Below are positions 10,270-13,435 of a stretch of DNA of 64,000 bases, piece by piece. Each line of letters opens with the position of its first letter. Within the stretch, counting starts at the first letter, position 1. The position numbers and the translations under genes were made by a program. This DNA comes from Patescibacteria group bacterium (GTDB taxonomy: Bacteria; Patescibacteriota; Kazan-3B-28; UBA10110): the NCBI GenBank assembly GCA_043802665.1, contig JAZDKW010000010.1, positions 4,024-68,023 of the forward strand, in the 5' to 3' direction. The notes beneath the pieces were generated by a model. It did not search any database. It saw only the letters and a list, made by a program, of their open reading frames with translations, and was not told the origin of the DNA.

Positions 10270-10383
10270 TGGCGGTGTGCGTTCGAAAAAATTCGAACCG
10301 ATTTCGCCCAAAATTTGTAGGGCGGGCGGAATTCCCCCCAGACCCCCCTTCCACCCGCCCGCAGAAGCGACCCTTTCGGATTG
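10270..10383. repeat. IR-a left copy (114 bp, perfect inverted repeat of 11542..11655). Begins with TGGCGG (the reverse complement of a tRNA 3' end) and contains an internal GC hairpin.
   Basis: Base-by-base comparison with the reverse complement of 11542..11655. Confidence 0.85.
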
Positions 10384-10421
10384 GACGATTTCAAGTTTTT
10401 CTTTGGCGGCAAATTCTTTTA

Positions 10422-11168
10422 TTATTCTTTTTGTGCATAACCAATATAACCCAATTTCGTATTTTTCCCGATACCAAATTTAAACTCACCTTTTTTTATT
10501 CCCGCTAATATTCCCGCTAGTATAAAACCTTTTGTTTCTATATTTTTTATATTATATTTTTGCATTAAAAAATTAAGTTCGTCTGGCTTGATGAATTTTT
10601 TCCATTCATGTATATCCACGTTTTCGCCTGATACCTTTAAAGTTTTAAATTGTTTCATCATAAAATAATTAAAAAACCAGTTCATAATTTTTGAAAGAAT
10701 AGTTCTATTTATAGTAAGATAACAAAATTTTCCGCCATGCTTTAGTACCCTTGAAGTTTCGCTTATTACTTTTTCAAGATTGTTTACATGTTCAAGACAG
10801 TCAGCGCAAACTACCACATCAAACGTATTATTTCCCATAGGAATATTTTCTGCAGAACCTACCCTGTAATCAATTTTCAAGTTATTTTTAAAGGCATGAT
10901 TTATTGCCACTTTTATAGCATTTTCAGAAATATCTATTCCAGTAATATTAGCATCTTTTTTAGCAAACTCTTCAGCTAAAAGTCCACCGCCACATCCCAT
11001 GTCTAAAATCTTTAATCCTTTTAATTCTCCAATTGCTTCACTGAAATAGGAAAATCTTACAGGATTCATTTGTTGAAGCGGGTTATTTTTAGTACTCCAC
11101 CAAAAATCATCTATCCGATTGTACATATTGTCTTTAACTATTTTATTTTCTTTAATCCATTTGTCCAT
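10422..11168 (-). CDS. Class I SAM-dependent methyltransferase (UbiG/SmtA-like small-molecule methyltransferase), AT-rich cargo gene.
   Basis: ILDMGCGGGLLAEEF (motif I) and FDVVVCADCLEHV; this stretch is visibly far more AT-rich than the flanks. Confidence 0.75.
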   Translation of the reverse strand: MDKWIKENKIVKDNMYNRIDDFWWSTKNNPLQQMNPVRFSYFSEAIGELKGLKILDMGCGGGLLAEEFAKKDANITGIDISENAIKVAINHAFKNNLKIDYRVGSAENIPMGNNTFDVVVCADCLEHVNNLEKVISETSRVLKHGGKFCYLTINRTILSKIMNWFFNYFMMKQFKTLKVSGENVDIHEWKKFIKPDELNFLMQKYNIKNIETKGFILAGILAGIKKGEFKFGIGKNTKLGYIGYAQKE

Positions 11169-11177
11169 ATGTTTATA

Positions 11178-11384
11178 TTATTTTAATAAATCCTCTATTG
11201 AAACGCCAAGAGATTTGGCTAATTTTGCCATAATAAGTACAGACGGCTTTTTAATAACATTGCTCTCAATCTTTGTAAGAGTAGTGTATTTCACGCCAGA
11301 TTTCTTGGCAAAATCCTCTTGGGATAATCCCTGCTTATTTCGGTACTTTTTTATATTTTCGCCTATGTTGATTTCTATTGCCAT
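11178..11384 (-). CDS. XRE-family helix-turn-helix transcriptional regulator.
   Basis: 68 aa with QGLSQEDFAKKSGVKYTTLTKIESN, the classic Cro/C1 HTH. Confidence 0.8.
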   Translation of the reverse strand: MAIEINIGENIKKYRNKQGLSQEDFAKKSGVKYTTLTKIESNVIKKPSVLIMAKLAKSLGVSIEDLLK

Positions 11385-11396
11385 ATTATCACTAAT

Positions 11397-11445
11397 TTGA
11401 TAGTATTAAAGTGTTATACTATCCTTTCAATATAATACTATCAAA
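11397..11445. promoter_or_regulatory. Operator-like array of half-sites GATAGTAT / ATACTATC (x2) overlapping a TTGATA-17-TAGTAT promoter for the XRE gene.
   Basis: Palindrome TTGATAGTAT-N9-ATACTATC plus a third half-site ATACTATCAA 13 bp further on, directly upstream of the XRE start. Confidence 0.5.
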
Positions 11446-11541
11446 TTTTATGAAAATAGTCCAATTAAAAATGAGGGAAGCCCGCTTTTGGCCCAAAATG
11501 AAATTCGAGCCGATATTTTTTCAGGTTCTTTGGCAGTTTTT

Positions 11542-11655
11542 CAATCCGAAAGGGTCGCTTCTGCGGGCGGGTGGAAGGGGGGTCTGGGGGGAATTCCGCC
11601 CGCCCTACAAATTTTGGGCGAAATCGGTTCGAATTTTTTCGAACGCACACCGCCA
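11542..11655. repeat. IR-a right copy (114 bp) ending in CCGCCA.
   Basis: Identical to the reverse complement of 10270..10383. Confidence 0.85.
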
Positions 11656-11656
11656 A

Positions 11657-11736
11657 TTGGGAAATGTCTTTGTTGGCTCGCCCTCTGCGAGGGCTCGCCA
11701 GCCGATTTTAAGCGCAAATCGGAATTTTTTATCTTT
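11657..11736. repeat. IR-b left copy (80 bp).
   Basis: Identical to the reverse complement of 13169..13248. Including CCGCCA, the match is 87 bp with one mismatch. Confidence 0.85.
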
Positions 11737-11806
11737 GCCCCGCTACTGCGGGGCTGGTCAAAAGCGGGCTTCCCGAATTTTCATTTTTAATTTTTAAGGA
11801 GAAACC

Positions 11807-13435
11807 ATGAAATATTTTATCTACACTCGAAAATCAACGGACAGCGAAGAACGACAGATTTTAAGTATTGAATCCCAGATTTCCGAATTGAAAGAATTTG
11901 CCGCCAAAGAAAAACTTGAAATCGTCGCCTCGCTTAGCGAGGCAAAAACTGCCAAAGAACCTGGCCGAACCGTGTTCGGCGAAATGCTCGATCGGATTGA
12001 AAAGGGCGAAGCCCAAGGAATTTTGGCTTGGCATCCGGATAGATTAGCTCGCAATTCAATTGACGGTGGTAAAATCATTTATTTGCTGGACACAGGAAAG
12101 ATCAAGGACTTGAAATTTCCCACATTTTGGTTTGACTCAACGCCACAAGGAAAATTTATGATGAACATTGCCTTTGGCCAAAGCAAATATTATATCGACA
12201 ATCTAAGCGAAAATATAAAACGAGGACATCGGGCAAAACTGCGAAAAGGAATTTGGCCAAACTTTGCCCCGCTTGGTTATTTGAATAATCATAAGACGAG
12301 AGGAATTGATATTGATAACGAAAAAGCACCGTTTGTCAGAAAAGCATTTGAACTTTATTCAACGGGAGAATATACATTAAAAGCTGTTGCGATAATTTTA
12401 GATCAAGCGGGGCTAAGAAGCTATAAAGGCAATGTTCTTTCGGTTTCCTGTGTCCAGCGACTTTTGCAGAACTCGATTTACTATGGCATATTTTCTTTCA
12501 ACGGTGAAATCTATGACGGAACGCACGAGCCGATTATTCCCAAGAAACTTTTTGATTCTGTTCAACAAGTAATGAGCAACCGAGGCAAAAAGAAACGCAA
12601 ACGAAAACACGAATTTGCTTTTCCGGGATTGATGAAATGCGGGAATTGCGACTGCCTGATAACTGCTGAAAAACAAAAAGGACACCACTATTATCGTTGC
12701 ACCAAGAAAAAGCAAACCTGTAATGAAAAATATTTGCGGGAAGAAAATCTTGTTGAACAGATGAAAGGAATTATTCAAAAAGTTTCTTTGCCTGATGACT
12801 GGGCAAATAATATGCTTGCCGAGATAGACAAAGAAAAAGAGCAAGTGAGAGAAGAAACGAAAGTTTTTGTTCAAAATCTCCAAGCTCAAAAAACAGAGAT
12901 CGAAAGCAAAGCTGAAAACCTGCTTGATTTGTTTATCGGTGGCAAAGGCATTGAACCCGAGGAATATCAAGCCAAAAAATCAAAGCTGCTTAACGAGAAG
13001 CAGGACATTTTGGTAAAGATAAGAGATTTTGAACAAAAAGGAAATAATTGGCTCGAACCGATGAAAGAAATGATTTTAGCCAGTAGCCAAGCCAAAATTC
13101 TTTTGTCGCAAAGCGACAATCAAGAAATCCGAGCATTTCTCAAAAATATCGGCTCGAACTTCATTTTGAAAGATAAAAAATTCCGATTTGCGCTTAAAAT
13201 CGGCTGGCGAGCCCTCGCAGAGGGCGAGCCAACAAAGACATTTCCCAACTGGCGGAGAGGGCGGGATTCGAACCCGCGGTGCCTGAAAAGGCACACAGAC
13301 TTTCCAGGTCTGCTAGTTAAACCACTCCTACACCTCTCCAGGTCTTACTTTGTAAATGCAAACTGTTTATATTATCACCTTTATTCTGCTTTACATCTAA
13401 CCATTCCGAGTATTTGTTTAAAATCCGCGGGTTAG
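11807..13435 (+). CDS. Large serine recombinase (resolvase/invertase catalytic domain, recombinase domain, zinc-ribbon). The ORF has no stop until 13435, so it runs through IR-b and tRNA-Ser; the true C-terminus is probably at or before about 13250.
   Basis: N-terminal YTRKSTDSEERQILSIESQ (catalytic Ser), LAWHPDRLARN, and Cys cluster CGNCDCLITAEKQKGHHYYRC typical of large serine recombinases; AAGGAG ribosome-binding site. Confidence 0.8.
   Translation: MKYFIYTRKSTDSEERQILSIESQISELKEFAAKEKLEIVASLSEAKTAKEPGRTVFGEMLDRIEKGEAQGILAWHPDRLARNSIDGGKIIYLLDTGKIKDLKFPTFWFDSTPQGKFMMNIAFGQSKYYIDNLSENIKRGHRAKLRKGIWPNFAPLGYLNNHKTRGIDIDNEKAPFVRKAFELYSTGEYTLKAVAIILDQAGLRSYKGNVLSVSCVQRLLQNSIYYGIFSFNGEIYDGTHEPIIPKKLFDSVQQVMSNRGKKKRKRKHEFAFPGLMKCGNCDCLITAEKQKGHHYYRCTKKKQTCNEKYLREENLVEQMKGIIQKVSLPDDWANNMLAEIDKEKEQVREETKVFVQNLQAQKTEIESKAENLLDLFIGGKGIEPEEYQAKKSKLLNEKQDILVKIRDFEQKGNNWLEPMKEMILASSQAKILLSQSDNQEIRAFLKNIGSNFILKDKKFRFALKIGWRALAEGEPTKTFPNWRRGRDSNPRCLKRHTDFPGLLVKPLLHLSRSYFVNANCLYYHLYSALHLTIPSICLKSAG
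13169..13248. repeat. IR-b right copy (80 bp), abutting the tRNA-Ser 3' end.
   Basis: See 11657..11736. Confidence 0.85.
13250..13339 (-). tRNA. tRNA-Ser (anticodon GGA), class II with a long variable arm.
   Basis: Manual fold: GGAGAGG/CCTCTCC acceptor, D-stem TAG/CTA, anticodon stem CAGAC/GTCTG with loop CTGGAAA, variable-arm hairpin GTGCC…GGCAC, T-arm GCGGGTTCGAATCCCGC, 3' GCCA. Confidence 0.85.

Follow-up and report, generated by a model that had tools for sequence, protein, structure and literature searches.

A compact serine recombinase island at tRNA-Ser with a predicted spare inverted attP and two pairs of long inverted repeats

Introduction

The locus considered here lies in a 64,000-nucleotide stretch of contig JAZDKW010000010.1 (assembly GCA_043802665.1) from a Patescibacteria group bacterium; we refer to the whole of this stretch as the window, and coordinates are positions within it unless another locus is named. 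Next to a tRNA-Ser(GGA) gene, the window displays two adjacent segments, each enclosed by long inverted repeats, one of which codes for a large serine recombinase (LSR; the gene is hereinafter rec). What kind of unit do these segments form? An initial annotation, made from the letters alone, proposed an integrated element whose segments are or can be inverted by the recombinase in a phase-variable or shufflon-like manner, or alternatively two nested elements with long terminal inverted repeats. Having compared the locus with its relatives, we consider it probable that 10270–13255 is one integrative element of ~2,980 bp moved by the LSR, with a circular form that would bear two attP sites, one of which is kept as a spare, inverted copy upon integration. 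As judged from these relatives, the element is a member of a large, widespread and previously undescribed family of minimal LSR islands.

Organization of the locus

A repeat search of the window reproduces the boundaries that had been given for both repeat pairs. The first, IR-a (repeat I1), pairs 10270–10383 with 11542–11655 over 114 nt at 100% identity, a perfect match long enough to exclude a chance origin. The second, IR-b (I2), pairs 11650–11736 with 13169–13255 over 87 nt at 99% identity, with a single mismatch at 11656/13249. The inner arms of the two pairs abut and overlap at 11650–11655. We denote the sequence of the IR-a arms as A and that of the IR-b arms as B, with a prime for the reverse complement: A reads along the minus strand in the left arm of IR-a and along the plus strand in its right arm, while B reads along the plus strand in the left arm of IR-b (11657–11736) and along the minus strand in its right arm (13169–13255).

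The segment enclosed by the A arms (segment 1) codes for an XRE-family protein and a methyltransferase, and that enclosed by the B arms (segment 2) for the LSR, which is the gene content originally read from the sequence. The tRNA-Ser(GGA) gene, detected by a tRNA search and by Rfam, occupies 13250–13339 on the minus strand, and its terminal hexamer recurs at the three junctions in alternating orientation (TGGCGG at 10270, CCGCCA at 11650 and TGGCGG at 13250), again as first noted. An Rfam scan of 9500–14500 with E-values up to 1 returned this tRNA as the only match above the gathering score, the one other match being Plastid-psbl-rps4 on the tRNA antisense (40 bits against the 68 required). 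As no covariance model matched above threshold, a known RNA family was ruled out as the identity of the repeat arms.

Hence, the layout and the repeats had been described correctly; what had gone unrecognized is that the middle junction is an intact attP, that segment 1 contains four inverted copies of rec-gene sequence and that rec lacks a stop codon of its own.

The recombinase

The rec open reading frame (ORF) extends over 11807–13435 on the plus strand. It has no stop codon within the element and reads through the tRNA gene in antisense as far as 13435, with the conserved protein ending around 13249. The C-terminal tail of Rec, whose protein sequence is conserved, is encoded by the B′ arm. 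Rec is an LSR of the 480-amino-acid class and displays the full domain set of such enzymes, namely Resolvase (PF00239, E = 2.9e-19), Recombinase (PF07508, E = 3.1e-15) and Zn_ribbon_recom (PF13408, E = 1.6e-06), with all three matches exceeding the curated cut-offs, and a catalytic-type motif, YTRKSTD, near the N-terminus. Beyond its own family, it shows a weak match in the PDB to the A118 integrase (E-value ~1e-4) and is less than 30% identical to any phage or plasmid LSR in annotated collections. IMG/VR contains no relative of Rec. We considered a viral origin and ruled it out based on this absence, the phage and plasmid collections offering only LSRs below that 30% level.

Attachment-site geometry

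The alignment of the junctions from more than 20 loci yields a simple pattern: the middle junction has the form A-core-B, the reverse complement of the tRNA-proximal junction has the form tRNA-core-B, and the reverse complement of the distal junction has the form A-core-unique flank. A listing of the flanks for every A-arm end in the loci examined shows that the sequence past the distal core is unrelated from genome to genome. These are the hybrid junctions with a short common core that attL and attR of serine integrases present. We accordingly read the locus as follows: the junction at 10270 is attR, formed by the left arm of IR-a (core TGGCGG, 10270–10275) and the host flank (A-core-L′); that at 11650 is a complete, inverted attP, with the right arm of IR-a as its left half, the core at 11650–11655 and the left arm of IR-b as its right half; and that at 13250 is attL, formed by the right arm of IR-b and the tRNA gene, which represents the left half of an occupied attB.

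The proposal that CCGCCA serves as the common core is borne out, and in three relatives (L026, L027 and L037) the minimal three-way overlap shrinks to CCG, which would place the crossover dinucleotide at CC or at the palindromic CG within this CCG, i.e., at the last acceptor-stem bases and the discriminator. Relatives with other specificities obey the same junction logic with different cores (GCAC for tRNA-Phe, GCACCA for tRNA-Leu, TCCACCA for tRNA-Val and CTGCCA for tRNA-Trp), and the element supplies the CCA where the host tRNA gene encodes none.

Every A arm contains the heptamer GTTCGRA, which is the same as that of the tRNA T-loop. Its distance from the core is 23 nt in attP and 18 nt in the tRNA in 23 of 24 loci spanning five tRNA specificities; the single exception is a mis-hit of the search pattern, for which inspection by hand gives 22 and 17 nt. 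In the window, GTTCGAA at 11627–11633 is 23 nt ahead of the CCG of the core (11650–11655), and the GTTCGAA of the tRNA T-loop, starting at 13273 on the minus strand, is 18 nt ahead of its CCG. In serine integrases, the motif bound by the zinc-ribbon domain is 5 bp nearer to the crossover in attB than in attP, and this difference discriminates the two sites (Rutherford et al. 2013, PMC3783163). The very same 5-bp shift separates the two types of half-sites here, suggesting that GTTCGAA is bound by the zinc-ribbon domain of Rec. Together with the A-core-B structure, the shift marks the junction at 11650 as a bona fide intact attP. The resemblance of the end of IR-a to a degenerate T-arm and acceptor end, which the initial annotation had pointed out, is thus genuine: it corresponds to a P-type half-site of Rec with GTTCGAA displaced by 5 bp relative to the T-loop. 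The sole mismatch of IR-b (11656/13249) falls on the base directly after the CCA, where the internal attP has an A, as opposed to the G of attL and attR; hence, the two attP copies already differed at this base at the time of integration.

The window also offers two unoccupied sites of the attB type, the minus-strand genes for tRNA-Ser(tga) (54733–54824) and tRNA-Ser(gct) (54846–54938), which end in GGTTCGAATCCC...CCGCCA. They lie ~41 kb from the element on the same DNA as an intact attP and rec, and their persistence implies that rec is normally silent.

Distribution and mobility of the family

Relatives of Rec number in the thousands in the protein collection, and contigs representing one genome per species contain at least 235 loci with relatives that are 57–96% identical to it at the amino-acid level. 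The hosts are mostly Patescibacteria, along with bins assigned to Kiritimatiellia, Gammaproteobacteria, Nitrospira, Brocadia, Thermodesulfovibrio and Elusimicrobiota, and one of them is a cultured isolate, Schleiferia thermophila DSM 21410. We compared layouts using a feature map of 80 loci and self-comparisons. The recurring order is distal A arm, a copy of a rec fragment termed m36, cargo, XRE gene, copies of three further fragments (u, m27 and m20; see below), proximal A arm, core, B arm, rec, B arm, core and tRNA. The 3′ end of rec abuts the 3′ end of a tRNA gene in 55 of the 57 scorable loci; 40 of these 55 targets are tRNA-Ser genes of any anticodon, with the rest being Trp, Gln, Arg, Leu, Phe, Val or Asn. 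The domains of Rec and the att junctions both support the original view of an element that an LSR has integrated at the 3′ end of tRNA-Ser.

Both repeat pairs are found again in at least ~25 independent assemblies produced by different assemblers (SPAdes, MEGAHIT and others). The arms of a pair are mostly 96–100% identical within a locus (80–94% in a few) and 75–98% identical between loci, and their lengths range from 55 to 228 nt, with no tie to k-mer size. The repeats are therefore genuine and undergo concerted evolution. Their near-identity had been taken as a sign of recent or ongoing exchange, and a pattern of arms that match within loci and differ between them indeed speaks for ongoing homogenization.

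In each of the independent insertions, recognizable by their different flanks and different tRNA-Ser isoacceptors, both segments are present and the order is constant (tRNA, rec segment, attP, cargo segment, host flank), from which it follows that the mobile unit contains both. Three loci (L016, L017 and L018) are 98.4–99.6% identical from the A arm to B′ and yet sit in three unrelated flanks, in a Thermodesulfovibrio metagenome-assembled genome (MAG), a Patescibacteria MAG and the S. thermophila isolate (L018). The spread is therefore recent; even if the MAG contigs were not all assigned to the correct taxon, the three contexts certainly differ. A further case, L085 (on the same contig as L001), presents a tandem array of two complete elements of the form S1a-S2a-S1b-S2b-tRNA (S1 and S2 being segments 1 and 2) at one tRNA-Ser gene. 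The second element (2988–9625) has repeat pairs of 228 and 134 nt (99% identity) and 4.4 kb of cargo, including an AAA_15 ATPase and a Dam-like methyltransferase. The hybrid junction of the array, Ba′-core-Ab′, is that expected if a whole element were to enter the attL of a resident one, which would make the tRNA half-site the part of the target that matters.

Duplicated fragments of the recombinase gene

Segment 1 contains inverted copies of four pieces of rec and its leader. The copy of m36 (rec positions 11891–11926), m36′, lies at 10384–10419 on the minus strand (36 nt, 100%; repeat I3), where it abuts the A arm; most relatives have such a copy next to their distal A arm. At the opposite edge of segment 1, a continuous block at 11454–11541 on the plus strand, delineated by repeats I4, I6 and I8, is made up of u′ (11454–11493), a rough copy of the rec leader at 11756–11795 (~40 nt, 78%), m27′ (11494–11520), a copy of the 3′ end of rec at 13142–13168 (27 nt, 96%), and m20′ (11522–11541), a copy of rec positions 11944–11963 (20 nt, 100%). 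The u′, m27′ and m20′ block is conserved across all subfamilies.

The source sequences within rec are themselves constrained at the nucleotide level. On the plus strand, m36, a 17-nt hairpin (11927–11943) and m20 constitute a contiguous block (11891–11963), and the conserved 27-mer m27 (13142–13168) abuts the B′ arm. Conservation at third codon positions reaches 0.94–0.99 in m36, as compared to a mean of 0.66, leaving m36 near-invariant even in relatives with 57% protein identity, and it is likewise raised in m20 and m27. Compensatory synonymous changes preserve the 17-nt hairpin. The m36 and m20 copies of segment 1 lie on either side of the A arms, exactly where rec has this hairpin, and its m27 and u copies directly adjoin each other; when both segments are circularized on paper, they are colinear homologs. 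Two functional interpretations were tried and rejected. Antisense pairing of the u′, m27′ and m20′ copies with the rec mRNA finds no support in the changes observed, 10 wobble-compatible versus 12 incompatible transitions among distinct pairs with no strand asymmetry. The CCGCCA within m36 is regarded as coincidental rather than as a functional core, given that m36 is unchanged in relatives with other tRNAs and other cores.

Orientation of the segments

Segment 1 is inverted in four loci (L012, L020, L025 and L052) relative to their close relatives; in two such pairs, L011/L012 and L052/L032, the alignable element sequence is ~88–95% identical. Its orientation among relatives is biased by ~5:1. 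For segment 2 the bias is stronger, with rec converging on the tRNA in 55 loci and being co-directional with it in just two (L054 and L069). These are not the proportions that a freely flipping system would give, and a freely switching, shufflon-like arrangement is not supported by the distribution of orientations. Of the proposed recombinase-mediated inversion, what stands is that segment 1 does occur flipped in some relatives; its role as a switch is weakly supported in light of these biases. Serine integrases are not known to join attP to attL or attR (PMC3783163). In our view, host homologous recombination acting on repeats of 80–230 bp would account both for the flips and for the homogenized arms.

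Both co-directional loci offer further clues. L054 (3780–5450 of its locus) is the only one without an internal attP: its rec stops at a TGA just past m27, which is joined directly to u-like sequence and an XRE gene. The most fitting interpretation is that a co-directional isomer lost the sequence between its two direct m27 copies, and we prefer this to L054 being an ancestral simple form. L069 (2540–4450 of its locus) is a hybrid at tRNA-Trp: the B arm next to the tRNA is of the Trp type, and a Ser-type B′-TGGCGG-A′ lies beyond rec. Its halves are apparently joined at the m27 block, which suggests that modules may be exchanged between subfamilies at the conserved blocks.

A model for the element

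Recombining attL with attR on paper, i.e., working back from the integrated form, yields a predicted mobile form for the element: a double-stranded circle of ~3 kb in which two inverted A-core-B repeats of ~200 bp separate segment 2 (rec) from segment 1 (XRE and cargo). One copy of the repeat would lie in the leader of rec and the other at the 3′ end of the gene, on which the cargo operon converges. If integration used the latter copy, its attP would be divided into attL and attR and the former would stay intact. The retention of this spare attP would account for the long inverted repeats on either side of each segment. Exchange between the copies, by recombination and gene conversion, would keep the arms near-identical and occasionally flip a segment, mainly segment 1. 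The B arm would provide the tRNA with its CCA and a terminator-like hairpin and would place the same hairpin ahead of rec. The retained attP might act as a decoy or operator for Rec or as a live site for further attP × attB recombination.

We more tentatively entertain an extended version of this model, to which we attach considerably less confidence: the elements might constitute a purpose-built, cross-phylum family with two attP sites and a circle comparable to the yeast 2-micron plasmid, with the intact attP being live for the free tRNA-Ser genes, and with m36-hairpin-m20 and m27 functioning as cis-acting sites in some step of control or recombination.

Several observations weigh against a single element with a two-attP circle. 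None of the 10 contigs with the rec-B′-core-A′ arrangement in a metagenome scan could be shown to be a closed circle, and at least one is a tandem array. Two contigs of 3.0 kb, L092 and L093, do have attP on both sides of rec; the arms are only 96% and 93% alike, respectively, L092 is not closed, and both may derive from tandem arrays. Two equivalent attP copies predict integration in both orientations, whereas it is the copy at the 3′ end of rec that is split in 55 of 57 loci. By eye, the half-sites at the end of A and the start of B share no obvious symmetry and the right half of attB is not conserved among loci, both of which are unusual for LSR sites. Since canonical LSRs do not recombine attP with attP, attL or attR, the flips have to be assigned to the host rather than to Rec. 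The model leaves the duplicated m36, m20, m27 and u blocks unexplained, and inverted repeats that differ slightly can come out of de Bruijn assemblers as perfect ones.

Alternative explanations

We regard it as unlikely that the segments are two separate, adjacent elements with palindromic attP sites (A-core-A′ and B′-core-B, respectively), with segment 1 being a non-autonomous satellite mobilized in trans by segment 2. Each integration through such a palindromic site would leave a unit flanked by inverted arms. Its best argument is the colinearity of the paper-circularized segments, both of which read u, genes, m36, hairpin or A/A′, m20, (the middle of rec), m27 and then nothing or B′/B, such that the small hairpin of rec sits exactly where segment 1 has its long arms. 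Furthermore, A-core-A′ would be a symmetric attP with GTTCGAA on both sides, and L081 and L069 show rec segments beside non-matching A or B arms. However, no solitary segment 1 or 2 and no tRNA-core-A′ junction was seen among the loci; the A ends lead either into a B arm or into unique host flank, which leaves the earlier alternative of two nested or separate elements with terminal inverted repeats unsupported. Nor was an A-core-A′ palindrome found in the 94 loci examined, and the pattern had no match in viral contigs; the lone match to B′-core-B is an unrelated palindrome. The order is always tRNA-S2-S1 and strictly alternating in the tandem array, and the B arms lack GTTCGAA, depriving B′-core-B of a recognizable half-site.

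The repeats could instead serve Rec-mediated inversion in a phase-variable or shufflon-like system, for instance, one that toggles the expression of rec or its C-terminal tail. We hold this to be improbable. It would fit the occurrence of both orientations of segment 1 among relatives and the two loci (L054 and L069) with rec co-directional with the tRNA. A flip of segment 2 would also change the C-terminus of Rec from the tRNA-antisense read-through to one ending in ...FPNWRCAFEKIRTDFAQNL followed by a stop, and many contigs break inside the arms, as they would in a heterogeneous population. Multiple copies of the element explain such breaks equally well, and against inversion by Rec stand the strong orientation biases (55 to 2 for segment 2 and ~5 to 1 for segment 1). 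The sites available are attP with attL or attR, pairings that are not normally recombined by serine integrases (PMC3783163). Nor does any gene stand out as having alternative ends or promoters.

Far less plausible is a single-stranded form, arising in transformation or conjugation, in which A-core-B pairs with B′-core-A′ to produce a dumbbell with a 200-bp duplex-attP stem, reminiscent of the CTX-phi attP or the integron attC. The two repeat copies are fully complementary over the whole attP, selection for pairing would explain arms that are alike within loci and diverged between them, and a stem of this kind would explain repeats far longer than an LSR site. Nevertheless, serine recombinases cut both strands, and by their mechanism the recombination of such a hairpin stem with attB would produce hairpin-capped chromosome ends in place of the insertion that is seen; the systems known to use folded sites have tyrosine recombinases, and we found no evidence for a single-stranded stage.

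Finally, although metagenome assemblers can create or homogenize inverted repeats and a perfect 114-nt pair would be suspicious in a single assembly, an artefact (a fold-back chimera or a collapsed or mis-joined repeat) is so remote as to be effectively refuted by the recurrence of the architecture across independent assemblies with locus-specific arms, by arm lengths of 55–228 nt irrespective of k-mer size and by the isolate locus L018, in which the internal attP, attL and the B arms are all present (the distal A arm falls outside the stretch examined).

Cargo, regulator and flanking features

The cargo gene of segment 1 (10422–11168, minus strand) codes for a class-I SAM-dependent methyltransferase of the Methyltransf_11/UbiE-like type and not for a member of the DNA methylase families. 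The cargo slot differs between relatives, which carry C5 and N6/N4 DNA methyltransferases, an AAA_15 ATPase, an HD protein, a multicopper oxidase, a polyprenyl synthase or a Na/Ca exchanger; genes neighboring the DNA methyltransferases may encode restriction enzymes, and a P-type ATPase also appears to be present, as assigned by reading translations rather than by Pfam. The 68-amino-acid XRE-family helix-turn-helix (HTH) protein (11178–11384, minus strand) is conserved in relatives beside the promoter region. In this region (11385–11453), divergent promoter-like sites, found on both strands, and a palindromic operator-like repeat (11394–11413/11428–11447; repeat I10) are recognizable as consensus matches. 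No recombination directionality factor was identified, with the XRE protein being a candidate regulator only, and no replication function is present among the ORFs of the element and their Pfam matches.

Both arms contain hairpins. That of the A arm is GC-rich (about 11573–11615) and present in all aligned A arms with a sequence that varies by subfamily; as this sequence is not conserved and no T-run consistently follows it, the A arm was rejected as an intrinsic terminator. The B arm has a terminator-like hairpin and T-run (11702–11731 on the plus strand, with the hairpin at 11702–11722) between the XRE-side promoters and rec. Its counterpart in the right arm of IR-b (13203–13183, minus strand) faces transcription leaving the tRNA gene and, judged at the consensus level, would replace the displaced native terminator of the tRNA. 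Just outside the left junction, a minus-strand hairpin with a 16-bp stem (10222–10255; repeat I13) is probably this original tRNA-Ser terminator, now 2,980 bp from the tRNA.

A few additional ORFs deserve mention. A 128-amino-acid ORF (11411–11797, plus strand) crosses the A and B arms of the internal attP and has annotated counterparts in L081 and L083; indels in the A-arm alignment that are not multiples of three count against it being coding. On the side of the tRNA opposite to the element, an ORF for a LAGLIDADG-type homing endonuclease (13317–14054, minus strand, 245 amino acids, PF14528) overlaps the 5′ part of tRNA-Ser(GGA) by 23 nt. Among the relatives, L082 (165–2762 of its locus) has an 865-amino-acid ORF (P0001) adjoining two tRNA-Ser genes, in which a divergent N-terminal part of Rec is fused to a 92%-identical Rec from about residue 70; it is probably a recombinant or a decayed tandem of two elements.

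Implications

If our reading of a single LSR-moved element is right, a very small, very widespread and currently mobile element, with near-identical copies in contexts assigned to different phyla, delivers genes for restriction-modification, defense and metabolism to tRNA genes, above all among the little-understood Patescibacteria. As Rec would recognize the conserved T-loop and acceptor end, and its attP/attB geometry can be read from the sequence, it is an attractive candidate for a broad-host-range integrase for use in tools. The cultured carrier S. thermophila DSM 21410 provides an experimental handle. The retained inverted attP and the constrained blocks of rec fall outside current models of serine integrase elements; were the tentative purpose-built version also true, the family would represent a new design principle for serine-recombinase elements and might drive chromosomal inversions anchored at tRNA genes, as well as the exchange of cargo, in Patescibacteria and other phyla.

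Comparison with known systems

The searched literature contained no description of this architecture. Its parts nevertheless recall several known systems in different ways. With respect to the inferred circle, the nearest analogy, with a different class of enzyme, would be the yeast 2-micron plasmid, which likewise has two long target-bearing inverted repeats and two segments in both relative orientations. In that plasmid, the FRT sites lie in 599-bp inverted repeats, FLP is a tyrosine recombinase, replication is autonomous and flipping amplifies the copy number. In contrast, the element described here is integrated, shows no replication function, flips rarely or under counter-selection and uses a serine enzyme.

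Serine invertase switches (Hin, Gin and Min) and shufflons share with it segments bounded by inverted repeats beside a recombinase gene, of the serine type in the former; the shufflon recombinase Rci is a tyrosine recombinase. However, Rec is of the large integrase type as opposed to the small invertases of ~190 amino acids with a C-terminal HTH, and the arms are att-bearing and 80–230 bp long as compared to sites of ~26 bp, with biased orientations and no alternately expressed gene. The locus also differs from insertion sequences and transposons with terminal inverted repeats: each internal segment is enclosed by two arms of one type (A or B), the two outer ends of the element (A′ and B′) have no sequence relationship, and the junctions are att hybrids at a specific tRNA site. 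As in the folded attP of CTX-phi or the integron attC, two inverted copies could fold into a duplex recombination site; those systems employ tyrosine recombinases and single-strand exchange, unlike the serine recombinase here.

Tycheposons and SCC elements, the latter with the CcrAB serine recombinases, resemble it as compact cargo islands at the 3′ end of a conserved gene with tandem accretion and variable accessory or defense cargo; we know of no description of an internal inverted attP, paired long inverted repeats or duplicated recombinase-gene fragments in either of them. The closest correspondence in enzymology is with the phage-type LSRs (Listeria A118/LI, Bxb1, phiC31 and SPbeta), with which Rec shares the catalytic, recombinase and zinc-ribbon domains, the logic of attP × attB yielding attL and attR, and a motif 5 bp nearer to the crossover in attB. 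It departs from them in being less than 30% identical in sequence and in moving a ~3-kb element without phage genes that targets a tRNA end, conserves only the left half of attB and retains a second intact, inverted attP. Thus, relative to the serine-integrase elements described so far, what would be new is the minimal size, the tRNA-end target with one conserved attB half-site, the retained inverted attP with its long homogenized repeats, and the duplicated, nucleotide-constrained gene fragments.

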